DNA of 64,000 nucleotides from Minisyncoccota bacterium (GTDB lineage Bacteria > Patescibacteriota > Minisyncoccia > Phycocordibacterales > GWA1-40-21): assembly GCA_041663045.1 (NCBI GenBank), contig JBAZRH010000001.1, positions 340,403 through 404,402 on the forward strand, in the 5' to 3' direction. Position numbers and translations under genes: made by a program. Shown piece after piece: positions 6,629 to 60,224 of this stretch. The notes under the pieces were generated by a model that was given only the letters and a program-made list of their open reading frames with translations, had not been told where the DNA came from and made no database searches. How positions within the stretch are numbered: position 1 is the first letter of the stretch; every line of letters begins with the position of its first letter.

Positions 6629-7426
6629 TTAGTCTATTTTTGTTTCAATTATCTTTTTGAACTTCTTTTCTAACTCTGGTCTTATTTCTTCTCCAACTTC
6701 TTCATAAATTTTGATTAAATCCTCAAAAGTACCGGCTCCACCAAAATAATCCCAAAAATCTTTTCCAATGAGAAAGTCGTTACCTTTGTCGAAAAATTTA
6801 ATACATGTCCATCGTTGGTATTCTTGTGGTGCGTAAGGATTATAATACATGCCTAAAAATATTTTCACCCTTTTACCCTCTCTTGCTTTCATAGCGTAAA
6901 TCTCTAAAAGATCTCTCTTTGCAGCCCTCATTTCATTTTTATTTGGCTTAGGTCCTTTTATCTCGAAATATATTTCTTCGCCGTTATCTCGTTCAAGATA
7001 AAGATCAACAGTTTGAATTCTATCAACTAAATCCTTACTGTCCTGACTTGCATTATAGATTTCTTCTGACTCTTTTTTATGACTTGGCTCTCTCTTTACA
7101 CTATCAAGATCACTGAGAATATTCTCAAATGTTCGCTGTGCTTCGTGTGTAATTTTTCCTTGCAATTTCTCTGTTCCTTGTAGTTTTTTTGCTACCTTAA
7201 AATTTTCTTTGGCAATGATTTTCGCAACTGATTCATGCCAACTACCAAGTGCGGTTTCGCAACCATGTATAAATCCTTTTGCTAAGTAACCCTTCTTTGT
7301 GAAAAGGGCATATTGAAAAGGTTTTGCTGAATCCTCATCGCTTAAATCATACTCCGCAATCTTCCTTAAGATTTTCTCTTTGAGAAATTGGTAAACCTCA
7401 ATTTTTGATTTTTCAGATAAAGCCAT
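6629..7426 (-). CDS. putative Type II restriction endonuclease (candidate PD-(D/E)xK nuclease)
   Basis: 265 aa, immediately downstream of the methyltransferase in the same orientation; VDLYLERDNGEEIYFEIKGPK resembles a D...E.K nuclease core. Assignment is by position and weak motif only. Confidence 0.4.
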   Translation of the reverse strand: MALSEKSKIEVYQFLKEKILRKIAEYDLSDEDSAKPFQYALFTKKGYLAKGFIHGCETALGSWHESVAKIIAKENFKVAKKLQGTEKLQGKITHEAQRTFENILSDLDSVKREPSHKKESEEIYNASQDSKDLVDRIQTVDLYLERDNGEEIYFEIKGPKPNKNEMRAAKRDLLEIYAMKAREGKRVKIFLGMYYNPYAPQEYQRWTCIKFFDKGNDFLIGKDFWDYFGGAGTFEDLIKIYEEVGEEIRPELEKKFKKIIETKID

Positions 7427-7430
7427 ATGA

Positions 7431-9005
7431 TTATTTTACTTTAAAATGAAATATAATTTCTGAATACGGATTTCGATCGCGTTCCGTTCTGTTCAATACT
7501 GGTCGCTTAAACTGATTGACAATCTTCATTCCCGCCTTTTCCGCAATTTCTGGGTAGAGATTATATTTATCATTTGCCACAAGAAAAATGTCAAAATCTG
7601 TTTTGAGGTATTGCTTACAGTTATTTAACACATCTGCAATCCCTTGTGCATATGACCGGCGAGCCTCCATTCCTTGCCCTTTGTATAGCGGCCCAATTTC
7701 TAAATCATCCTTGCGCTTAAATCCAAGAAGGTCATATGCGTAAGCGTGTTGCTCGTGATAATCAATCTGCCCTACATAAGGAGGTGAGCAAAAAATACCA
7801 GCTATTTTTTGTTTTTTTAGAATTTTAGAAAATTCTGGATTTTGCTTCTCTATTTTCTCAAAAATATCTATCGCCCTTGAATCACCAGCTAAAACGGAAT
7901 GGTGAACTGGTTTTCGTAATCTACTAAATTCTCTGATTCTGTTTAATGTATCAAGAGCATAGCGATTGAGCATACTCGTTATCGAGAAAAGAGGTTTGCA
8001 GATTTTTTTGTGTTTATAACAGTAATAAGTCGTAAGTTGAGGTTCTTTGAGGGTTGCGAGGTCGCTGTGCGTAGTCGCACGACACGATCTGATTGTCCTG
8101 CTCAAAATCAGAGCTAACATTTTGCGGGTTTTGACGTCTTTTTCTTGTTTGATTGTTTGGAAAACATGATCTATCTCTCGACGAACATTATCCATAAACC
8201 AAACATCAAGGAAAGAATCGGATTTGTCCTGTTTTAACTTAATTGAATACTTTTTTAGTAGTTTCTGATATACAGGCAAAAACTCCTTCTCTTTTTCTGT
8301 GGCAAATTTATTTTCATCAAAACTTCCTTGATTGATTTTGTATTTAAAGTCAGAACCCGGAAAATGTACCAAGTTAAATTTGGCAAGTTCGGCCAAAAGT
8401 TCGTTTTCAAAATCTTGAATTTTATTGTCATGATCAAAAGAATCAAGTGAAGCAATTAGTTTTTTAATCGCTTTTTGTAAGTACTCATCGTTATAGTGTG
8501 TTGCCTTACAACTTGAAATCATGCAGTTAAATTCAGAAACATCTATACCAACGGAATGAATACCCATTTCAAGCGATTGAATAATTGTTGTCCCAGAACC
8601 CAAGAATGGATCAAGAATAACATCACCTGCTTTGAAATAGGCTTCTTTCTTAAAATCATCAGTATGATTATCTATAAAATATTCAACAAGTTGTGGAATG
8701 TATTTACCTTTATATGGGTGGAGTCGGTGTACATGTTTTGTGGTATCCACCTCTCTTAAATTATCAAAAGAAAGCGTCCAATTTAAATCATCGCCTAGAT
8801 TTTTTTTCCAACTTACTTCGCGCGTGCCATTATAAGAATTATAATATTTTTTTAAATCATTCAAATCAACCATGGTCGAGCCGTTCTCTCCATGTTTTTT
8901 TACTTTTCCATACTGGACAAGGTAAGAAATGTTCGTAGGTAAAACATCTTTCTTGAGATGTTCTGATGCCCATTTTGATGCTTCGGGGATAGTTACTAAT
9001 GACAT
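7431..9005 (-). CDS. DNA amino-methyltransferase (alpha-class; motif I DPFLGSGTT, motif IV SPPY suggests N4-cytosine or N6-adenine)
   Basis: 524 aa; FxGxG-type AdoMet motif near residue 135 and catalytic SPPY near residue 405 with a long target-recognition region between. Confidence 0.8.
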   Translation of the reverse strand: MSLVTIPEASKWASEHLKKDVLPTNISYLVQYGKVKKHGENGSTMVDLNDLKKYYNSYNGTREVSWKKNLGDDLNWTLSFDNLREVDTTKHVHRLHPYKGKYIPQLVEYFIDNHTDDFKKEAYFKAGDVILDPFLGSGTTIIQSLEMGIHSVGIDVSEFNCMISSCKATHYNDEYLQKAIKKLIASLDSFDHDNKIQDFENELLAELAKFNLVHFPGSDFKYKINQGSFDENKFATEKEKEFLPVYQKLLKKYSIKLKQDKSDSFLDVWFMDNVRREIDHVFQTIKQEKDVKTRKMLALILSRTIRSCRATTHSDLATLKEPQLTTYYCYKHKKICKPLFSITSMLNRYALDTLNRIREFSRLRKPVHHSVLAGDSRAIDIFEKIEKQNPEFSKILKKQKIAGIFCSPPYVGQIDYHEQHAYAYDLLGFKRKDDLEIGPLYKGQGMEARRSYAQGIADVLNNCKQYLKTDFDIFLVANDKYNLYPEIAEKAGMKIVNQFKRPVLNRTERDRNPYSEIIFHFKVK

Positions 9006-9303: not shown

Positions 9304-9732
9304 GTCCGCCCCGAATTCCCCCAAAACAAAAAGAGGAGCAAATGGAAAATTCCTCCCCAAACCCCTCCTCCTCCGCTTGCGACATCCGAATTCAAAAACA
9401 AATCAGCCGAAGTTTTGGCAAATCCTTTCCTCCCCAAAAAATAGTTTTGCCAAAACTTCGTCCGCATTGTTCCGCCACCTGCCCGAATACTTGGAGGGCA
9501 GAACCCCGAAAGAAAAACACCCTTTCCTTTTTCAAAAGAAATTTCACCCCCGCCAAATCAGAAATGCAAGGAGTGTTTTTCTTTCGGGGTTTCCGCCGAG
9601 GCTTTGCGAGGCGGTGGCGGAACGATACGAGCGTACGAGGCAGTTTAGAGCCACCACGCGCTCCGCGCGTGCGATTAGTCGGCATCAGGGTTGCTTTCAA
9701 AATACATTCGAACTTTGTATAATACACACCGC
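9304..9732. repeat. right copy of the 429-bp inverted repeat (partner 5155..5583)
   Basis: reverse complement identical to 5155..5583; ORFs inside (9240..9877, 9282..9467, 9392..9727) mirror those in the left copy and are judged non-coding. Confidence 0.9.
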
Positions 9733-9848
9733 CAAAAATCGAAATCAGTTTTTGAAGCCAAAATGGGGTCGCGCCGAAGGCGCGACACTAATGCATTCCC
9801 CCCGCCGAATTCAGAATCCAAAAGGGTTTTCCACGCTCCGCGTGGCTC
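9729..9848. repeat. left copy of a 120-bp inverted repeat (partner 11253..11372) bracketing the serine recombinase gene
   Basis: 9729+11372=21101 symmetry verified base by base; this copy is an inverted duplicate of the tRNA-Ser 3' terminal CCGCC plus its 115-nt trailer. Confidence 0.9.
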
Positions 9849-9869
9849 CTCGTTTGCCAATACAAAATT

Positions 9870-11432
9870 ATGATTGATCACACCAGAAAATTTTTTATAT
9901 ACACTCGTAAATCTACCGATACTGAGGATCGGCAAGTTAGAAGCATTTCGGATCAACTGGCCGAGCTTAAAGAGTTAGCGGTTAAAGAACAAATCGAGGT
10001 TGTTGATATTTTTGTGGAAAAACAAACCGCTAAAGCCCCGGGTCGGCCAGTATTTAATGAAATGCTTCTCCGTATCGAAGCAAATGAGGCAAATGGAATT
10101 TTAGCGTGGCACCCCGACAGATTGGCGAGAAATAGTGTTGATGGTGGAAAAATTATCTATTTGCTCGATACGGGAAAAATTGCCGAGCTAAAATTTCCAA
10201 CTTTCTGGTGTGATACAACACCGCAAGGAAAGTTTATGCTCTCAATCGCTTTTTCTCAATCCAAGTATTACGTGGATAACTTGTCGGAGAATATCAAGCG
10301 CGGACACAGAAACAAAGTGAAGGAAGGAATATGGCCTCAAATGTCCCCGATAGGTTATGTCAATGTGAAAGGTGGTGGAATTATCCCTCACGCAGATTTA
10401 GCACCACTTGTTAAAAAGACATTTGAGGCATATTCAACTGGAAACTTCACTTTGCGGGAAGTCCGCGACAAGTTTAATGGGCTTGGATTGAAAAGAAAAA
10501 GCGGTAGAGAGCTTGCGGTGTCGAATTATCAAAAACTTCTCAAAAATCCTATTTACACCGGACTAATGAGATATAACGGAGAGATTTTTGAGGGAAAGCA
10601 CGAACCGATTATTTCAAAGAAACTTTTTGATCAATGTCAAGAAGTGATGATGAGAAAATCTAAACCTCACTCGAAAGGGCTAAAGCCATTTTTGTACAGA
10701 GGATTTTTCCGTTGCGGAGAATGTGGCTGTTTTATAACTACCGAGCAACAAAAAGGTCATCGCTATCTCCGCTGTACCAAACGGAAAAATCCTTGTACTC
10801 AAAAATATGTTCGTGAGGAGCTCATCACTTCTCAAATTCAAAATGAAATCAAAAAAGTTTCTTTGCCTCTCGATTGGACGGAGTGGATGATTGCCGAAAA
10901 TGCAAAAGATCGGCAATCAGAAGTCCAATCGAGTTCGCTTTTTGTGGATTCTGCAAAAGCCGATATTTCTCTTTTAGATTCCAAGATTGAGAAGCTGATG
11001 ACGGCGTATTTAGAGAACGCACTTTCAATTGAAGAATATCGCGACGCAAAAAGTGCGCTGGTTGCCTCAAAACAGCTTCTCAAAGAGAAATTATCGGCTT
11101 TTGAGCAAAAAGCGAATAATCGGTTCGAACTTACCGAAAAGTTTTTGAAATACAATATGGAATTGGCAAACGAGGGAACAAATGAAGAAAAACTTCATTT
11201 GTTCAAAAAAGTCGGTTCGAACTTTTTAATTAAGGATCGAACCGTACTTTTTGAGCCACGCGGAGCGTGGAAAACCCTTTTGGATTCTGAATTCGGCGGG
11301 GGGAATGCATTAGTGTCGCGCCTTCGGCGCGACCCCATTTTGGCTTCAAAAACTGATTTCGATTTTTGGCGGAAGTGGGAGGATTCGAACCTCCGATGCC
11401 CTTTCGAGCATGCCGCTTTTCGAGAGCGGTGA
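9870..11432 (+). CDS. large serine recombinase (resolvase/invertase N-terminal domain + recombinase domain + zinc ribbon)
   Basis: 520 aa; N-terminal YTRKSTDTEDRQ catalytic-serine region, CGECGC...C zinc-ribbon-like segment, C-terminal coiled coil. Its last ~57 codons are encoded by the inverted repeat and by the antisense of tRNA-Ser. Confidence 0.85.
   Translation: MIDHTRKFFIYTRKSTDTEDRQVRSISDQLAELKELAVKEQIEVVDIFVEKQTAKAPGRPVFNEMLLRIEANEANGILAWHPDRLARNSVDGGKIIYLLDTGKIAELKFPTFWCDTTPQGKFMLSIAFSQSKYYVDNLSENIKRGHRNKVKEGIWPQMSPIGYVNVKGGGIIPHADLAPLVKKTFEAYSTGNFTLREVRDKFNGLGLKRKSGRELAVSNYQKLLKNPIYTGLMRYNGEIFEGKHEPIISKKLFDQCQEVMMRKSKPHSKGLKPFLYRGFFRCGECGCFITTEQQKGHRYLRCTKRKNPCTQKYVREELITSQIQNEIKKVSLPLDWTEWMIAENAKDRQSEVQSSSLFVDSAKADISLLDSKIEKLMTAYLENALSIEEYRDAKSALVASKQLLKEKLSAFEQKANNRFELTEKFLKYNMELANEGTNEEKLHLFKKVGSNFLIKDRTVLFEPRGAWKTLLDSEFGGGNALVSRLRRDPILASKTDFDFWRKWEDSNLRCPFEHAAFRER
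11253..11372. repeat. right copy of the 120-bp inverted repeat; doubles as the tRNA-Ser 3' trailer
   Basis: see 9729..9848; contains a GGGGTCGCG block shared with other tRNA-trailer modules. Confidence 0.9.
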
Positions 11433-11456
11433 TTTCAACCACTCACCCACACTTCC
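11367..11456 (-). tRNA. tRNA-Ser (anticodon CGA), CCA encoded
   Basis: acceptor GGAAGTG/CACTTCC, 3-bp D-stem, anticodon stem CCGCT/AGCGG with loop CTCGAAA, long variable arm, T-arm GGAGGTTCGAATCCTCC, discriminator G + CCA. Confidence 0.85.
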
Positions 11457-11521: not shown

Positions 11522-11596
11522 GGCCCTATCGTCTAATGGTTAGGACACGGCCTTTTCAAGGCTGTAATCAGGGTTCGATTCCCTGTAGGGTCACCA
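11522..11596 (+). tRNA. tRNA-Glu (anticodon TTC), CCA encoded
   Basis: acceptor GGCCCTA/TAGGGTC, D-arm TCGTCTAATGGTTAGGAC, anticodon loop TTTTCAA, T-loop TTCGATT. Confidence 0.85.
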
Positions 11597-11745
11597 AAAA
11601 TTTACACAGTAATATTTTTGTGATTTTAAAATGTAAAAGTCTTTACATTTTAAAAGAATCGAAAGACGGACTGAGTAAAGACGAAGGAGTCGGGGTCGAG
11701 AGATTTTTCAGCAGAAAAATACTCGTGACCGATTCACCTTAATAA
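11597..11745 (+). repeat. tRNA-trailer module downstream of tRNA-Glu (family member, lacks a clean terminal direct repeat)
   Basis: contains GGAGTCGGGGTCGAGAG and CGTGACCGATTCACC blocks matching GAGGCGGGGTCGCGA and TTGTGACCGATTCA in the tRNA-Gly and tRNA-Lys modules; AT-rich hairpin right after the tRNA. Confidence 0.55.
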
Positions 11746-11751
11746 AATCAA

Positions 11752-11784
11752 ATGAAAATCTTAGGCATTGAAACCAGTTGCGAC
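11752..11784 (+). other. orphan duplicate of the first 11 codons of tsaD (MKILGIETSCD) with 7 synonymous differences
   Basis: ATGAAAATCTTAGGCATTGAAACCAGTTGCGAC versus the real start ATGAAGATTCTAGGAATCGAGACCAGTTGCGAT at 11863. It is followed by a short out-of-context reading frame. Confidence 0.8.
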
Positions 11785-11862: not shown

Positions 11863-13059
11863 ATGAAGATTCTAGGAATCGAGACCAGTTGCGATGAAAC
11901 AGCAGTTTGCTTAATTGAAACCGACAAAGAAGTCGGCAATATTAAAATACTTGGTAATCAGCTATATTCTCAAATCGCTTTACATGCACAATATGGCGGA
12001 GTTTTCCCTATGATGGCAAAAAGAGAACATGCAAAAAATCTTATTCCACTGTTTGAAAGATGTTTGGAAGAAGCGAGCTGTATAAAAGAAGTAAGATCTC
12101 CTATCCTAGAATCAGCAAGAGAAAAACTCAAAGAACTCCTTGTAAAAGAAATGGATATTTTTGATCAGATTATTGAGCTTGCGGAGAAAATCGAAAAGCC
12201 AAATATAGATGCGATTGCCGTGACAAACGGCCCGGGGCTTGAGCCGGCACTTTGGGTCGGTGTGAATTTTGCAAAAGCACTTGAAATTATTTGGAATATT
12301 CCTATCATCCCCACAAATCATATGGAGGGACATATCCTTGTCGCAGCTATTGATAAAATAAAAACCGAGGAGTCACCTTCCAAGGCTAAGGAAACACCTC
12401 AATTTTTATTAAAAGAGATTAAATTCCCCGCTATCGCTCTTCTTATAAGTGGTGGGCATACCCAGCTTGTCCTCGCAAAAGACAATCTTCAATATGAAAT
12501 CGTCGGCAATACGAGAGACGACGCTGTGGGCGAAGCTTTTGATAAAGTTGCAAGGATTCTCGGTCTTCCATACCCGGGTGGACCACAGATTTCTAAACTC
12601 GCCGAAAAAGAAAGGGCAGAAAATCCAGATAAAAAACCGCCATATCCCCTACCTCGCCCCATGATCCATTCGGGTGATTTGGATTTTTCATTTTCCGGTT
12701 TGAAAACCGCGGTGCTTTATACTGTTAAAAAAATTCCCGAGATGACCGAAGAGATCAAACAAGAAATCGCCTGTGAATTTGAAAATGCCGTCTTGGAAGT
12801 GTTGACTAAGAAAACATTTGAAGCCGTCAGAAAATATAGTGCGAAAACAATAATAATTGGTGGAGGTGTCAGCGCAAATAAAAAGATAAGAAACGACTTT
12901 ACCGAAAAATCCAAAGCAGAAGATGTTGAACTGATGATTCCTGAAGTAAATGCTTCCACAGATAATGCCTTTATGATAGCCCTTGCCGGAGCGATAAATT
13001 TAGAAGCCGGTAAGAAAACCGCTACGGATTTCAGGGCAAGTGGGAATCTATCGCTTTAA
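11863..13059 (+). CDS. tsaD: tRNA N6-adenosine threonylcarbamoyltransferase TsaD (Kae1/TsaD family)
   Basis: 398 aa; MKILGIETSCDET N-terminus, HMEGH metal-binding motif, Gly-rich ASKHA fold segments; carries an insertion relative to typical 340-aa TsaD. Confidence 0.85.
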   Translation: MKILGIETSCDETAVCLIETDKEVGNIKILGNQLYSQIALHAQYGGVFPMMAKREHAKNLIPLFERCLEEASCIKEVRSPILESAREKLKELLVKEMDIFDQIIELAEKIEKPNIDAIAVTNGPGLEPALWVGVNFAKALEIIWNIPIIPTNHMEGHILVAAIDKIKTEESPSKAKETPQFLLKEIKFPAIALLISGGHTQLVLAKDNLQYEIVGNTRDDAVGEAFDKVARILGLPYPGGPQISKLAEKERAENPDKKPPYPLPRPMIHSGDLDFSFSGLKTAVLYTVKKIPEMTEEIKQEIACEFENAVLEVLTKKTFEAVRKYSAKTIIIGGGVSANKKIRNDFTEKSKAEDVELMIPEVNASTDNAFMIALAGAINLEAGKKTATDFRASGNLSL

Positions 13060-16458: not shown

Positions 16459-16911
16459 ATGTCAAAAGAAAAGAAATCATTTTGGGGGAAATTCACTAGA
16501 GCAGTAAAAGTCAGAGATGAGGATGATGAATTAGAAAATAATAGTGAGGAAAATGAATCTGAGGAGTCAGATGATGATTCAGAAGGGCAACTTGCTATCG
16601 ATATGCATCAGACCCCTACAGAGATCGTGGTGAAGACTATGATCGCCGGTGTTAAACCAGAAGATTTGGATATTTCTATTACGAGAGATATGGTTACAAT
16701 AAAAGGCAAAAGAGAAGAAAGCCACGATACATTGAGTGAAGATTACTTCCACAGGGAACTTTATTGGGGTTCCTTTTCAAGATCTATTATCCTTCCACAA
16801 GAAATAGAAGTCGAAGACGCAGAGGCGATAAATAAAAATGGTTTGCTTATAATCAGACTACCCAAGCTAGACAAAAACAGACAAGCAAAATTGAAAGTAA
16901 AATCGGCATAA
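16459..16911 (+). CDS. Hsp20/alpha-crystallin family small heat-shock protein
   Basis: 150 aa; acidic N-terminal stretch then alpha-crystallin domain (AIDMHQTPTEIVVK...GLLIIRLPK). Confidence 0.8.
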   Translation: MSKEKKSFWGKFTRAVKVRDEDDELENNSEENESEESDDDSEGQLAIDMHQTPTEIVVKTMIAGVKPEDLDISITRDMVTIKGKREESHDTLSEDYFHRELYWGSFSRSIILPQEIEVEDAEAINKNGLLIIRLPKLDKNRQAKLKVKSA

Positions 16912-16918
16912 TGTAAAA

Positions 16919-16946
16919 GCGGCGCACGAAGTGCGCCGCTTTTTTG
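16919..16946 (+). terminator. rho-independent terminator (GCGGCGCAC-GAAG-GTGCGCCGC + TTTTTT)
   Basis: perfect 9-bp GC-rich stem, 4-nt loop, T-tract, directly after hsp20 stop. Confidence 0.8.
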
Positions 16947-16958
16947 TGCCGAGGGCCG

Positions 16959-17130
16959 GGATCTCTCCTTCGCCTCTCGGTTCGCCGTCGCTTGCCTCGG
17001 AATAGGCACCAGCTCATCAGTTTTTCTTGCTAGAAAGACATGATTCCGCTGTTCTCGCCCGGACGCAAGCAAAGCAGTTTGCTTGCGTCATCGGCACATT
17101 TAAAAACACCTCATCGGTGTTTTCTAAATG
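16959..17130 (-). repeat. tRNA-trailer module attached to tRNA-Phe. Ends with a 16-nt direct repeat (TGTGCCGAGGGCCGGG, 16959..16974) of the tRNA 3' end (17129..17144)
   Basis: contains inverted pseudo-copy of the tRNA T-arm/acceptor 3' strand interrupted by the conserved hairpin GACGCAAGCAAAGCAGTTTGCTTGCGTC; conserved blocks GAGCTGGTGCC and AGCGACGGCGA; terminator-like hairpin that includes the tRNA 3' end. Confidence 0.75.
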
Positions 17131-17203
17131 TGCCGAGGGCCGGGCTCGAACCGGCGACCCCTTCCTCTTCAGGGAAATGCTCTACCAACTGAGCTACCTC
17201 GGC
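17131..17203 (-). tRNA. tRNA-Phe (anticodon GAA)
   Basis: acceptor GCCGAGG/CCTCGGC, D-arm TAGCTCAGTTGGTAGAGC, anticodon loop CTGAAGA, T-loop TTCGAGC. Confidence 0.85.
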
Positions 17204-17260
17204 AGAAGTCTTTTTAAAGACCTTTTGATATTACACTATTTTAAAAGAATTTTCCAGAGC

Positions 17261-17548
17261 TTATCTAACTTTGTCTAGGAGGTTATTGATAGGATCTGTA
17301 ATCTTTGTTGTAGCGTTTTTTACTGTTTTAAGATCATTCTGAATACCGCTATAAACGTTTGAGACCATATTTAAATATGGTTGAATAAACCAATATGTCC
17401 CAAATGCCGCAACTATTATAATAATCCAGTAAATAACTCTAAAGAATGAGCTTAATCTATTAGATCTCCTTATGCTTCTGAGAATTTTATTATTTTCTTC
17501 AGAAAGATCATGAGTTTTCTGGAGAAGCTCTTTTTCGTTTGGATTCAT
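17261..17548 (-). CDS. hypothetical small membrane protein
   Basis: 95 aa with one hydrophobic helix (VIYWIIIIVAAFGTYWF). Confidence 0.4.
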   Translation of the reverse strand: MNPNEKELLQKTHDLSEENNKILRSIRRSNRLSSFFRVIYWIIIIVAAFGTYWFIQPYLNMVSNVYSGIQNDLKTVKNATTKITDPINNLLDKVR

Positions 17549-17574
17549 AATACAATTATATATTAAAAGCTATT

Positions 17575-17710
17575 GTGCCGCCAGTAAGACGCTCCGCTAT
17601 CTCACTCCTGGGAAACCCACGGTTTTCCCAATCCTTCCTTCACGGGAAAACAAGTGTTTCCCCGACCCCCTTCCTGTTCGATTCTTACTGACAGCAAGAA
17701 TCATCCATTG
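17575..17710 (-). repeat. tRNA-trailer module attached to tRNA-Arg. Ends with a 15-nt direct repeat (GTGCCGCCAGTAAGA, 17575..17589) of the tRNA 3' end (17711..17725)
   Basis: contains inverted copy of the tRNA 3' part (GTTCGATTCTTACTG) and block CGCTCCGCTATCTCACTCCTGG homologous to the Tyr/Thr/Phe modules. Confidence 0.7.
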
Positions 17711-17711
17711 G

Positions 17712-17783
17712 TGCCGCCAGTAAGAATCGAACTTACATCTAATCCTTAGGACGGATTTGTTCTATCCATTGAACTATGGCGGC
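17712..17783 (-). tRNA. tRNA-Arg (anticodon CCT)
   Basis: acceptor GCCGCCA/TGGCGGC, D-arm TAGTTCAATGGATAGAAC, anticodon stem AATCC/GGATT with loop GTCCTAA, T-loop TTCGATT. Confidence 0.8.
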
Positions 17784-17822
17784 TTATTGTTGAATATAAC
17801 ATAAAAACCAGTTAGAAACAAA

Positions 17823-17850
17823 AAGCGGCGCACTTCGTGCGCCGCTTTTT
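17823..17850. terminator. bidirectional terminator hairpin (AGCGGCGCAC-TTCG-GTGCGCCGCT flanked by A-run and T-run)
   Basis: perfect palindrome with UUCG loop between tRNA-Arg and the glutaredoxin-like gene. Confidence 0.7.
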
Positions 17851-17857
17851 GTTTCTG

Positions 17858-18091
17858 TTAAATCCCAAGTATTCCCGCTATCTTCTCTTCATTGAAACCG
17901 ACTATAATATCCCCATCTATATCTATTACAGGCACCCCCATTTGACCACTCTTTTCCATCATTTCCTTTCTCTTTGCTAAATCTTTTGCTACATCAAAAA
18001 CTGTGTATTTTACTTCATGTGCATCGAAGAAATCTTTTGCAAGATTACAATAATGACATGTAGGTGTTGAATAAATTGTTATTTTTTTCAT
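17858..18091 (-). CDS. glutaredoxin-like protein (NrdH/YruB-type thioredoxin fold, CHYC active site)
   Basis: 77 aa; MKKITIYSTPTCHYCNLAK...GVPVIDIDG is a typical small glutaredoxin/NrdH pattern. Confidence 0.7.
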   Translation of the reverse strand: MKKITIYSTPTCHYCNLAKDFFDAHEVKYTVFDVAKDLAKRKEMMEKSGQMGVPVIDIDGDIIVGFNEEKIAGILGI

Positions 18092-18144
18092 ATTATTTTT
18101 GTAATTAACTTTTAACTATTCCATTATAACATGCCTGTCAAGAC

Positions 18145-18338
18145 TTTGTGCGGGTGGCGAGAATAAAATGAATCGGTCACAAGTTCTGGCTCGTCGCCAC
18201 TCGCCAGACTCGCGACCCCGCCTCGTAGTTTTTTGAAGCAAAAAACATACTCTGGCTTCCGATTCTCGACGCGAGCAAAGCAGTTTGCTCGCTCCACCCG
18301 CACAAAATAAATAATCCCCGTTTTTAGGATTATTTATT
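18145..18338 (-). repeat. tRNA-trailer module attached to tRNA-Gly. Ends with a 19-nt direct repeat (TTGTGCGGGTGGCGAGAAT, 18145..18163) of the tRNA 3' end (18339..18357)
   Basis: a 24-bp AT-rich hairpin incorporates the tRNA 3' end. The inverted copy of the tRNA 3' half (CCGATTCTCG...TCCACCCGCACAA) is split by conserved hairpin ACGCGAGCAAAGCAGTTTGCTCGC. Blocks GAGGCGGGGTCGCGA and TTGTGACCGATTCA are present. Confidence 0.8.
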
Positions 18339-18339
18339 T

Positions 18340-18412
18340 TGTGCGGGTGGCGAGAATCGGACTCGCGCCACATGCTTGGGAAGCACGCGTACTACCACTA
18401 TACTACACCCGC
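18340..18412 (-). tRNA. tRNA-Gly (anticodon CCC)
   Basis: acceptor GCGGGTG/CACCCGC, D-arm TAGTATAGTGGTAGTAC, anticodon stem CGTGC/GCATG with loop TTCCCAA, T-loop TCCGATT. Confidence 0.8.
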
Positions 18413-18421
18413 ATTTCTTAA

Positions 18422-37869: not shown

Positions 37870-37942
37870 GCGCCCATAGCTCAGCTGGTAGAGCAGATCC
37901 CTCTTAAGGATAAGGTCGTAGGTTCGATCCCTACTGGGCGCA
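37870..37942 (+). tRNA. tRNA-Lys (anticodon CTT)
   Basis: acceptor GCGCCCA/TGGGCGC, D-arm TAGCTCAGCTGGTAGAGC, anticodon loop CTCTTAA, T-loop TTCGATC. Confidence 0.8.
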
Positions 37943-38124
37943 CAATTTTTAAAACTGCTGGGAGCCGTTTTAAAAATTGTGCGAGCCGGAATTATTTTTT
38001 CTAGCAGGAAAAAGTAATGAGGCGGGGTCGCGAAAATTTTCGAGCGACGGCGAGAAAATTATTTGTGACCACATAATAAGAGAATGAGTGTACTGACCAT
38101 GTAATGGTCGATACCCTACTGGGC
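37943..38124 (+). repeat. tRNA-trailer module attached to tRNA-Lys. Ends with a direct repeat (TCGAT[A]CCCTACTGGGC, 38108..38124) of the tRNA 3' end
   Basis: a 17-bp hairpin CGCACAATTTTTAAAAC/GTTTTAAAAATTGTGCG incorporates the tRNA 3' end; blocks GAGGCGGGGTCGCGA, GAGCGACGGCGAG and TTGTGACC shared with the Gly/Glu/Phe modules. Confidence 0.75.
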
Positions 38125-38134
38125 AAATAATATT

Positions 38135-38218
38135 GGGCGAGTGGCGAAATTGGCAGACGCATCAGCCTTAGGAGCTGACGATAGTAATATCATGGAGGTT
38201 CAAGTCCTCTCTCGCCCA
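38135..38218 (+). tRNA. tRNA-Leu (anticodon TAG), long variable arm
   Basis: acceptor GGGCGAG/CTCGCCC, anticodon stem TCAGC/GCTGA with loop CTTAGGA, T-arm GGAGGTTCAAGTCCTCT. Confidence 0.85.
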
Positions 38219-59748: not shown

Positions 59749-59894
59749 GAGCCAAGGGCGAGGATCGAAACTTACAGTTTCAGTCCCCTTTGTGGTTTTT
59801 TTATTCGCATAAGAATGCTCTAAAAAATGCTCACAAAGGCTTCGATCCTCGCACGAAAGCTCTCCCAGAGCTTTCTCTGTCTCAAACTTCGTTT
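59749..59894 (-). repeat. tRNA-trailer module attached to tRNA-Thr(CGT). Ends with a 21-nt direct repeat (GAGCCAAGGGCGAGGATCGAA, 59749..59769) of the tRNA 3' end (59894..59914)
   Basis: includes inverted T-arm copy GTGCGAGGATCGAAGCC and a UUCG hairpin that incorporates the tRNA 3' end. Confidence 0.75.
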
Positions 59895-59967
59895 GAGCCA
59901 AGGGCGAGGATCGAACTCGCGACCTGCGGTTTACGATACCGCCGCTCTACCAACTGAGCTACCTTGG
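59895..59967 (-). tRNA. tRNA-Thr (anticodon CGT)
   Basis: acceptor GCCAAGG/CCTTGGC, anticodon stem GCGGT/ACCGC with loop ATCGTAA, T-loop TTCGATC. Confidence 0.85.
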
Positions 59968-59979
59968 CTTATATTTACC

Positions 59980-60151
59980 GGAGCCGTTGACCAGGATCGC
60001 TCGCAACTCAAAATCTTTCCGTCGAAAAATTTTTGTCTGGGCACCGGCTCATAAAATTTTCTGCAGAAAATTTTTGACTCCGCCGTTCGCTCCTGGACGC
60101 AAGCAAAACCCTTTGCTTGCTTAAACGACTCATCCTCACTTCGTTCATCTG
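59980..60151 (-). repeat. tRNA-trailer module attached to tRNA-Thr(GGT). Ends with a 19-nt direct repeat (GAGCCGTTGACCAGGATCG, 59980..59998) of the tRNA 3' end (60151..60169)
   Basis: contains inverted T-arm copy CCGTTCGCTCCTGG, conserved hairpin GACGCAAGCAAA-ACCC-TTTGCTTGC, block GAGCCGGTGCCCAGAC and palindrome AAAATTTTCTGCAGAAAATTTT. Confidence 0.8.
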
Positions 60152-60224
60152 AGCCGTTGACCAGGATCGAACTGGTGACCTCGTCATTACCAATGACGTG
60201 CTCTACCAACTGAGCTACAACGGC
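60152..60224 (-). tRNA. tRNA-Thr (anticodon GGT)
   Basis: acceptor GCCGTTG/CAACGGC, anticodon stem CGTCA/TGACG with loop TTGGTAA, T-loop TTCGATC. Confidence 0.85.

Follow-up and report, generated by a model that had tools for sequence, protein, structure and literature searches.

Structured inserts behind tRNA genes of Patescibacteria: a probable family of miniature, protein-less insertion elements

Why should about half of the tRNA genes in one stretch of a bacterial genome carry, directly behind them, a non-coding insert of 120-200 nucleotides (nt) that repeats the 3' end of the very gene it adjoins? The question is posed by 64,000 nt of a Minisyncoccota bacterium (contig JBAZRH010000001.1, positions 340,403 to 404,402 of the forward strand; this whole stretch is referred to as the window), in which 15 tRNA genes were identified with ARAGORN and Rfam. 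A first-pass annotation, made by a model from the sequence alone, had drawn attention to the inserts, here called modules, and had read them as possibly mobile or templated or, alternatively, as a cassette for tRNA 3' processing or termination. Related inserts stand behind tRNA and transfer-messenger RNA (tmRNA) genes and are gained and lost between relatives, which points to an undescribed tRNA-targeting mobile family. On balance it appears probable, if well short of certain, that the modules constitute a large, Patescibacteria-wide family of miniature (~120-200 base pairs, bp) insertion elements that encode no protein and lie after tRNA, occasionally tmRNA, genes.

The same layout was found on the tRNA strand behind seven tRNAs of the window (Phe, Arg, Gly, Tyr, Lys, Thr-CGT and Thr-GGT). 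A trailer hairpin is followed by an inverted copy of the tRNA from its T-loop to its 3' end (designated a'), which is usually interrupted by a 9-bp hairpin (hp1), then by a structured core and finally by a direct repeat (DR) of the tRNA 3' end. The core is a segment of ~60-100 nt that occurs in several unrelated types, designated by letters. Exact DRs are located 120-190 nt downstream, on the tRNA strand, for Phe (15-16 nt), Arg (15), Gly (17-20), Tyr (15-16), Thr-CGT (21) and Thr-GGT (19); that of Lys is decayed and measures 11 nt. These matches were compared with 300 shuffles of each downstream region and, as a second control, with the upstream regions. Shuffled sequences gave longest direct or inverted matches of 8-11 nt and upstream regions gave 5-7 nt, except where the T-loop of a neighbouring tRNA was met. 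Exact inverted stretches of 11-13 nt were found in this comparison for Arg, Gly, Tyr and Thr-CGT, and of up to 15 nt in the initial search for repeats. The inverted copies of Phe, Gly, Tyr and Thr-GGT are split by hp1 and exact matching therefore underestimates them. The search for DRs and inverted copies found no module behind tRNA-Val, -Cys, both -Leu, -Gln and -Ser(GGA). Open reading frames that run across modules are mechanical overlaps only, and there is no coding capacity inside the modules. Only the tRNAs passed an Rfam 15 scan of the whole window at gathering thresholds, with no family recovered for any module, and a permissive scan of 16900-18420 at E<=10 returned nothing relevant and no known ribozyme. 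RNAfold predicted the tRNA strand to be more stable than its complement in seven of the nine window regions folded, the exceptions being Phe, where the two are about equal, and the region of tRNA-Ser, which is not a member and is slightly reversed.

The common architecture claimed by the first-pass annotation (hairpin, inverted copy, conserved blocks and DR) thus holds for seven tRNAs, the conserved blocks it quoted are present in their places, and the tRNAs it listed as free of modules were found to be so. Its DR length of 15-21 nt describes Phe, Arg, Gly, Tyr and both Thr but not Lys, and its count of at least nine copies has to be lowered to seven with a recognisable DR plus one decayed copy at tRNA-Glu, that is, eight copies in 64 kb. 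Of the two degenerate versions it proposed, the one at tRNA-Glu is this decayed copy, whereas the one at tRNA-Ser belongs to the inverted-repeat arm of a serine recombinase unit described below. The grouping of all copies into one family stands for the cores of Phe, Tyr, Thr-GGT, Gly, Lys and Glu, which are related, and fails for those of Arg and Thr-CGT, which are not.

Evidence for insertion comes from orthologous sites. Eighty loci were gathered through the FtsI-like protein encoded next to tRNA-Gly (66-91% amino-acid identity), and the tRNA-Gly(CCC), -Arg(CCT) and -Phe(GAA) genes of these relatives, including the closest one (L138), mostly lack a' and DR. Loci L141 (filled) and L142 (empty) have identical tRNA-Phe genes and differ by exactly a trailer, a', a core of type A and a DR; the native terminator AAAAAACCCGC..GCGGG lies after the DR in L141 and directly after tRNA-Phe in L142. 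The Gly site of the window differs in the same block-wise manner from the empty orthologous sites of L138, L139 and L141, with the promoter region of a glutaredoxin-like gene placed after the DR in the window and after tRNA-Gly in the relatives. Occupants also turn over at a single gene: tRNA-Gly is followed by a type B module in the window, by type A in L160, L186 and L199, by type D in L167, L172 and L193 and by type E in L213 and L215. The tRNA-Tyr site is filled in all seven loci that include it, with types A, D, E or decayed remains. Modules can be stacked, as at the tRNA-Asn of L137, where three successive modules with three different cores each end in CCCTGGCCGCGGAGC, and in L096, L074 and L106, where types A and B stand in tandem. 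Across all low-GC (low guanine plus cytosine) loci, an exact DR of 14 nt or longer was found for 48 of 238 tRNAs, at distances clustered at 113-204 nt. No longer insertion with the module ends or DR signature was found among these 238 tRNAs, with 8-14 kb examined per locus, and no relative has a full second tRNA copy at a module site.

The modules are therefore present or absent as blocks, leave an intact tRNA at filled sites and stack in tandem with each DR serving as the next target. The comparison of orthologous tRNA loci that the first-pass annotation had proposed favours insertion, with Gly, Arg and Phe sites mostly empty and exact block differences. The contrary outcome that it had envisaged, in which all relatives would be filled and the DRs would be remnants of tandem tRNA genes, was not encountered. 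Copies away from tRNAs also exist. Cores resembling types A and B occur at 8069-8173 of L139 and 298-404 of L171, closed by unrelated inverted repeats, and an orphan module in L151 (5803-5917) still has arms for tRNA-Phe while the tRNA itself has moved away.

How widely the modules are distributed was examined with type A, the core of which reads GAAC-RGCGGAG-(hp2)-YGAGCYGGTGCCYAGAC-(hp3, loop GAGCGACGGCGA)-AGTCGNRGGMGA. A three-block pattern of this core was searched in bacterial and archaeal contigs, one genome per species, and 120 stretches matched. Matches of high GC are chance occurrences in coding DNA; ~55 loci are of low GC, and three low-GC matches (L064, L117 and L125) are again chance occurrences in coding sequence. 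Where taxon names are informative, the low-GC loci belong to Saccharibacteria, Paceibacterota, Minisyncoccia, Taylorbacteria, Vogelbacteria and the Parcubacteria/Patescibacteria group, while a single short contig assigned to Bacteroidota has probably been mis-binned. Forty-two of the ~55 lie directly 3' of an ARAGORN tRNA on the same strand, representing 18 isotypes, with a matching a' and DR in most. A type A core follows a tmRNA in L118, and the type A module of L085 follows a tRNA-Phe-like gene with a group I intron (Rfam RF00028, 3015-3245). As for the other loci in which no tRNA was detected, several are truncated where the contig stops, some stand second in a tandem array, and L052 is an assembly palindrome.

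Alignment of 57 cores gave an RNAalifold structure of 25 pairs, 20 of which show compensatory changes. Paired cells amount to 95.8%, compared with 72.9% in column shuffles and 36-44% when partners were slid, and the covariation score is 0.63 against 0.19 in shuffles, none of 500 reaching 0.63. The three blocks of the pattern are invariant because they served to select the sample; no such selection acted on the covarying stems or on the remaining conserved positions. The alignment has about three G-U pairs for every A-C pair, and the folded strand is therefore the tRNA-sense strand. A covariance model (R1) built from the alignment of type A cores detected Tyr, Phe and Thr-GGT (77-111 bits), Lys (39), Gly (37) and Glu (24.5) in the window, all on the tRNA strand; nothing else in the window scored below E=0.1, and Arg and Thr-CGT were not detected. 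Types A and B are homologous, because one covariance model finds all six of these copies. Types D, E and G recur in relatives, and every type sits within the same frame, which runs from the trailer through a'1, hp1 and a'2 (the two parts of a' and the hairpin between them) to X2, the DR.

A two-block GC-rich pattern gave 16 matches in viral contigs, all of them chance occurrences in high-GC coding DNA, the hp1 pattern and the three-block pattern gave no match in viral contigs, and blastn of a type A module against phage and plasmid records gave none. No account of the modules or of the recombinase unit was met in full-text searches of the literature or in papers on Patescibacteria tRNA introns and gene exchange. 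A resemblance to the hammerhead, suggested by CTGATGAG in the Phe copy, was rejected as other copies have GCGAG, ACGAG or GTGAG at that place.

The anatomy of a module can be followed outwards from its tRNA. The first segment, X1, is the tRNA itself from the T-loop to position 74. The trailer hairpin is terminator-like in many copies of other genomes, with a GC stem flanked by A and T runs, and in several other copies it is a short GAACGAAGTGAG or GAGCGAAGCGA loop or mini-hairpin, some of these lying within tRNA operons. The inverted copy a' corresponds to tRNA positions ~53 to 74 and beyond and is normally interrupted by hp1 at the junction of T-stem and acceptor. Its first part, a'1, is complementary to the acceptor 3' strand, to the discriminator and to a few bases of the trailer, with the result that X1, trailer and a'1 make one long, often perfect hairpin; beyond position 74, a'1 pairs with the genomic trailer and not with CCA, unless CCA is encoded. 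In hp1 a single A precedes a 9-bp stem capped by a 4-nt loop (often CTGC), and GT follows; ~27 of the 42 type A modules keep this geometry, and the changes in their stems are fully compensated. The second part, a'2, is the complement of the T-stem 3' strand and T-loop, ends in GAAC (the complement of G53-C56) and tracks the loop variant of each tRNA, be it GAATCGAAC, GATTCGAAC, GATTTGAAC or GACTCGAAC. X2 starts at C56/G57 in types A and B and at T54 in type D and ends at position 74; its length is not constant (11-24 nt) and its start is fixed inside the T-loop for each core type. The inverted copy also pairs with X2, by which the module can close on itself, and the closed form is modelled as a three-way junction with the topology of an acceptor/T-stem stack carrying one side arm. 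A kissing interaction between the hp1 and hp2 loops, which are complementary in L031 and L039, was dropped because it is inconsistent across copies.

Two parts of the module behave differently. The scaffold is conserved, folds as one strand with the polarity of the tRNA and does not track the adjoining tRNA, hp1 and the cores being the same whatever tRNA adjoins, whereas the arms match that tRNA. In 38 of 39 modules a' is much better complementary to the adjacent tRNA than to the DR, which is often truncated; the relation that is maintained is therefore that of X1 to a', with X2 prone to decay. Mean core identity is 0.685 within tRNA isotypes and 0.673 between them, and the nearest relatives of the three type A cores of the window are found behind other tRNAs in other genomes. 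The idea that the elements are tRNA-specific lineages was abandoned, core similarity being independent of isotype. The contrast is also seen in L058 (tRNA-Pro) and L133, which come from one genome (JBAZRF01) and have targets with similar 3' ends. From hp1 through the core ~4 of 110 scaffold positions differ, two of them forming a compensatory hp1 pair, compared with ~8 of 19 positions in the arms (a'1, a'2 and X2), and the target-matching segments therefore change much faster than the scaffold. The arms appear to be rewritten by something other than point mutation, which could be templating from the neighbouring tRNA or recombination. In L074 and L133 a conserved sequence ending in ...TAGYTGGTTCCAACTTTSRCTCACWATGTCCACA lies upstream of the modules. 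It was not recognised as tRNA or tmRNA and may represent the 3' end of some other stable RNA that serves as a target too.

A mechanism can be proposed on this basis. Integration would proceed by recombination between the element's copy of the tRNA 3' end and the gene, in an att-like exchange within the segment from T-loop to 3' end. The free form would probably be a folded single strand, either single-stranded DNA (ssDNA) or RNA-derived, which is favoured because a double-stranded circle of 120-200 bp would recombine with difficulty and because the covariation is strand-specific. In this free form X and the trailer would pair with a', giving a long hairpin that bears hp1 and the core and presents the target as a duplex or as a tRNA-like copy. 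The necessary enzymes would act in trans. Being part of the insert, the trailer hairpin would stop transcription of the tRNA ahead of the antisense arm. The element would be retargeted to tRNAs whose 3' ends are similar, after which its arms would be re-templated from the neighbouring tRNA through hairpin (quasi-palindrome) correction. Fold-back copying on the native terminator was considered as an origin of a' and rejected, since in the L141/L142 comparison the terminator stands after the DR and the trailer hairpin lies inside the insert. We regard it as possible, though tentative, that the modules are categorically new, being either a scaffold that encodes no protein and whose target-matching arms can be rewritten, or catalytic RNAs of a new kind. 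A comparably speculative form of the proposal is that of a guide-bearing mobile RNA or ssDNA, in which a scaffold of hp1 and core would carry an exchangeable a'1, a'2 and target copy and would be retargeted by re-templating of these arms; such an element would recognise, and after insertion mimic, the acceptor/T-arm of the adjoining tRNA. The interchangeable cores may themselves be new catalytic or protein-recruiting RNAs.

The mobile or templated element suggested by the first-pass annotation finds support in insertion polymorphism, core turnover and tandem arrays, and several observations weigh on the other side. No recombinase, transposase or reverse transcriptase was found within the modules or consistently beside them, and mobility rests on these comparative patterns. 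There is no sign of a recent burst, as copies within one genome have usually diverged. The polymorphism lies between fairly distant relatives, and slow gain and loss of a cassette useful to the host would look similar. Cores can exist without tRNA arms, as in L139 and L171, in the manner expected of a structured RNA gene. The better preservation of a' than of the DR suggests selection or correction in situ and not the decay of dead inserts. A double-stranded circle of 120-200 bp would be an implausible substrate, and the single-stranded intermediate is an assumption. Finally, a type A sample collected by pattern inflates the apparent conservation of the three blocks used.

Readings at the RNA level have to be considered alongside an insertion element. 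The modules could be a cis-acting RNA cassette useful to the host, co-transcribed with the tRNA and gained and lost like defence genes, that acts in 3'-end processing, termination or stability, or that holds spare tRNA 3' ends in the a' duplex for release by the core. The strand-specific covariation on the tRNA strand with its excess of G-U over A-C, the conserved unpaired junction nucleotides and GA-rich loops typical of folded RNAs and the fixed start of the DR in the T-loop are in agreement with this, as is the complementarity of a' to the tRNA, which is kept even where the DR has decayed. So too is the position of modules inside tRNA operons (Thr-GGT/Thr-CGT, L058 and L114) with no strong promoter before the downstream tRNA. 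Against it, the terminator-like hairpin that separates tRNA and a' in many copies of other genomes implies that the module is seldom co-transcribed, and a perfect antisense to the tRNA 3' half on the same RNA would be expected to disturb tRNA folding. A module is lacking at most orthologous tRNAs, unrelated cores replace one another at a single tRNA, and tandem arrays and orphan copies such as that of L151 look selfish; on these grounds we consider a cassette of this kind unlikely, although it remains the most serious competitor. The cores might otherwise be new classes of self-cleaving ribozyme or small RNA genes, with the a'/DR helix as a modelled closing stem and the core types as functional analogues that replace each other as hammerhead and twister do. 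Several unrelated and individually conserved cores share one frame, the structure of type A has good support and no counterpart among Rfam families, and the junction with the T-loop is fixed. There is also a precedent in the 'theta' ribozymes, which resemble that of hepatitis delta virus (HDV) and are found directly downstream of phage tRNAs. Nevertheless no match of sequence or structure to a known ribozyme was obtained at E<=10 and the insertion polymorphism and DRs are not explained by catalysis itself, and the probability we attach to this explanation is low, about half that of the cassette. A selfish element fits better than either of these, given the terminator-like trailers, the dispensability of the modules, their interchangeable cores, their arrays and their orphans.

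Two further explanations take the modules for remnants. Integrase att sites in tRNA and tmRNA genes are classically recognised by DRs that span the gene from its T-loop to its 3' end, as the DRs of the modules do; the modules might then be scars (attL/attR remnants) of larger elements with tyrosine or serine integrases, for which the serine recombinase unit beside tRNA-Ser is a candidate source. That recombinase is very widespread and is accompanied by T-arm-like palindromes, and displaced tRNA-Gly 3' fragments in four loci (L140, L151, L157 and L179) show that such integrations occur here. The sizes of the modules are too tightly clustered (113-204 nt) to sit well with scars, the cores covary across the phylum, no module contains an integrase, R1 finds only a chance-level match of 6.7 bits in the recombinase unit, and type A is absent from the viral contigs and the phage and plasmid records searched, all of which makes this origin improbable to a marked degree. 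Decayed tandem duplicates of tRNA genes would account for DRs of the 3' end, and a'1 and the stem part of a'2 do equal the tRNA 5' acceptor and T-stem strands where pairing is perfect. This origin is already contradicted and can hardly be entertained: the T-loop part of a' is a reverse complement that follows the loop variant of each tRNA, a'1 runs into the complement of the trailer and not into a 5' leader, hp1 and the cores are common to different tRNAs, relatives lack a full second tRNA at module sites, and only the 3' 20-25 nt recur, without collinearity with the D and anticodon arms.

Several known systems offer partial parallels to the modules. Phages, integrative and conjugative elements and islands that use tRNA or tmRNA genes as attB have in common with the modules a target from T-loop to 3' end, a bounding DR, an intact gene and serial arrays. 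Unlike these, the modules measure 120-200 bp, have neither an integrase nor any other gene, possess in addition an inverted target copy and a folded scaffold that is conserved, and have a repeat that is often shorter and decays. MITEs, the miniature inverted-repeat transposable elements, are likewise small, non-coding, multi-copy, structured, polymorphic between relatives and prone to break assemblies, but the inverted arms of the modules (a' and X2) vary from copy to copy and equal the neighbouring tRNA where MITEs have family-constant terminal inverted repeats. The length of the duplication is also variable (11-24 nt), and no autonomous parent was found in the 8-14 kb per locus around the 238 tRNAs. 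A further parallel is offered by attC sites, the attP of CTX-phi and the guide pairing of IS200/IS605, where a folded single strand is used and an inverted repeat rebuilds or pairs with the target; shared as well are extrahelical hairpins, arms whose structure is kept more than their sequence, and arrays. The modelled fold of the module, with a' paired to X, hp1 extrahelical and a strand bias, would be compatible with att sites of the attC and CTX-phi type. The target of the modules differs, being any tRNA 3' end and not attI, dif or a tetranucleotide, and the core sequence is strongly conserved.

The HDV-like 'theta' ribozymes and other tRNA-linked structured RNAs resemble the modules in being conserved structured elements on the tRNA strand just 3' of the gene, but the modules match no such model, a trailer hairpin and an antisense arm intervene, and the DR and the polymorphism have no counterpart. 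Casposons insert at tRNA 3' ends with a long duplication (14-15 bp), whereas in the modules the start of the trailer and the end of the core are not inverted repeats as judged by eye and the size is two orders of magnitude smaller. No Cas1 domain was found in the window proteins scanned with Pfam, nor is there any gene inside the modules. A retroelement primer-binding site differs in that a'1 pairs with the trailer and not with the mature 3' CCA of the tRNA.

Within the window three modules lie close together on the minus strand. The type A module of tRNA-Phe (16945..17129; tRNA 17130-17203) scores 96.3 bits with R1 at 16949-17066 and consists of a trailer hairpin (17099-17129), a'1 (17091-17098), hp1 (17065-17086), a'2 with GAAC (17051-17062) and a DR (16945-16960). 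An identical copy is present in L001, a contig that ends at the Phe module. The module of tRNA-Arg(CCT) (17575..17708; tRNA 17709-17783) has a core designated type C that is not matched by R1, an a' that is a perfect 15-nt complement of the T-arm (17676-17690) and a DR at 17575-17589. At tRNA-Gly(CCC) (18341-18412) the type B module (18145..18340; R1 37.1 bits, E 2e-9) has its a'1 (18294-18307) in a long hairpin with the tRNA end and trailer, followed by hp1 (18271-18292), a'2 (18259-18268) and the DR (18145-18164). The type A module of tRNA-Tyr (29382..29574, minus strand; tRNA 29575-29658) gives the highest R1 score, 111 bits, with a'1 at 29537-29546, hp1 at 29514-29535, a'2 at 29499-29511 and the DR at 29382-29397. 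On the plus strand, tRNA-Lys(CTT) (37870-37943) is followed by a type B module (37944..38124; R1 39.1 bits, E 6e-10, at 37967-38086) whose decayed 11-nt DR (38114-38124) closely precedes tRNA-Leu(TAG), which begins at 38135.

The two threonine modules, both on the minus strand, form part of one tRNA operon. That of tRNA-Thr(GGT) (59981..60150; tRNA 60151-60224) is of type A (R1 76.7 bits), lies between this gene and tRNA-Thr(CGT), and has a trailer loop GAACGAAGTGAG, a'1 at 60124-60131, hp1 at 60099-60120, a'2 at 60085-60096 and a DR at 59981-59999. That of tRNA-Thr(CGT) (59749..59894; tRNA 59895-59968) has a type D core (GCCTnnTGAGC...ACTGnnnCTGTAAG) not matched by R1, with a'2 at 59841-59852 and a 21-nt DR at 59749-59769; the same core type recurs in L167, L172, L193 and L140. 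A promoter scan of this stretch gave only a weak match (9 of 12) at 59755-59727, inside the Thr-CGT module, and no promoter-like match between the Thr-GGT module and the downstream tRNA. The decayed type B module of tRNA-Glu (11649..11747, plus strand; tRNA 11522-11596) scores 24.5 bits with R1 (E 1e-5) and retains only the T-loop parts of a' (11656-11663) and of the DR (11730-11738).

Neighbouring features of a different kind were also recorded. The tRNA-Ser stretch at 11253-11372, put forward as a degenerate module, is one arm of an inverted repeat. It belongs to a large serine recombinase unit (9729..11372), not itself a module and matched by R1 only at a chance level of 6.7 bits, in which a gene running from 9870 to ~11180 on the plus strand is flanked by perfect inverted repeats of 120 nt (9729-9848 and 11253-11372). 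The protein has Resolvase, Recombinase and Zn-ribbon domains. Its homologues at E<=1e-20 number over 7458, of which the best 120 show 82-94% identity; where these 120 have named sources, they come from Minisyncoccia, Pacebacteria, Kaiserbacteria and Liptonbacteria. The 120-nt arms were seen again in three further contexts, L218, L219 and L220-L222 (the last with one identical recombinase protein), and are 94-100% identical within a genome and different between genomes. In the window the right arm opens with the final 6 nt of tRNA-Ser(CGA) (11367-11456, minus strand), and in L219 and L220-L222 also with those of a tRNA-Ser (CGA or GCT); no tRNA was called in L218, where the arm still starts with CCGCCA after a T-arm-like sequence. 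A conserved, degenerate T-loop-like stretch lies outside the left arm, two T-arm-like half sites form a conserved palindrome just within the right arm, and two samples with identical recombinase differ by a ~2.2-kb inversion beside the left arm. The unit geometrically resembles the X/trailer/a' hairpin with a gene in its loop, and its enzyme is a candidate for the mobilisation of modules; no sequence homology between unit and modules was found, nor anything indicating that the enzyme moves them. A TdeIII-type restriction endonuclease (6629-7426) and a DNA methylase (7431-9005) are encoded immediately upstream of the unit.

Other repeats were noted near tRNAs and elsewhere. In L140, L151, L157 and L179 the displaced 3' third or half of a different tRNA-Gly allele lies 20-45 nt after tRNA-Gly, and L140 and L151 have a common spacer of ~45 nt with two tRNA-Gly alleles in swapped order; such an arrangement looks like what integrase-type events would leave at one gene. 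The opening 32 nt of tsaD (11863-11894) have an 81% pseudo-copy (11752-11783) placed 111 nt upstream of the real start with a hairpin between, and it looks as if an insertion had regenerated the 5' end of the gene. Right after the FtsI-like gene, L139 (7812-7925) and L141 (4672-4790) have a palindromic, conserved non-coding element (GGGACCCGCATAATTTTCTGCTGAAAATTTGCTCAAGACTCAGGCCGTCGCCTTCCGTAGCTCCC) with a variable closing stem, and the genomes of these two loci carry several families of hairpin-closed elements. The contig of L052 is a perfect palindrome centred on a module hairpin, an assembly artefact, and its two inverted copies were not accepted as a real pair.

The practical consequences are that modules break assemblies and make palindromic artefacts, as in L001 and L052, and that they confound both the annotation of tRNA flanks and island finders based on att sites. 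For the biology of Patescibacteria, which have some of the smallest genomes among bacteria, the finding is one of phylum-wide extent, with one scaffold present from Saccharibacteria to Paceibacterota. Should the modules be RNAs, at least one and possibly several new classes of structured RNA would be tied to tRNA 3' ends. Should they be mobile, they would be site-specific elements found throughout the phylum that lack an enzyme of their own and whose arms are written to match the target, and this would imply a new route of recombination or templating at tRNA genes, possibly a programmable one.

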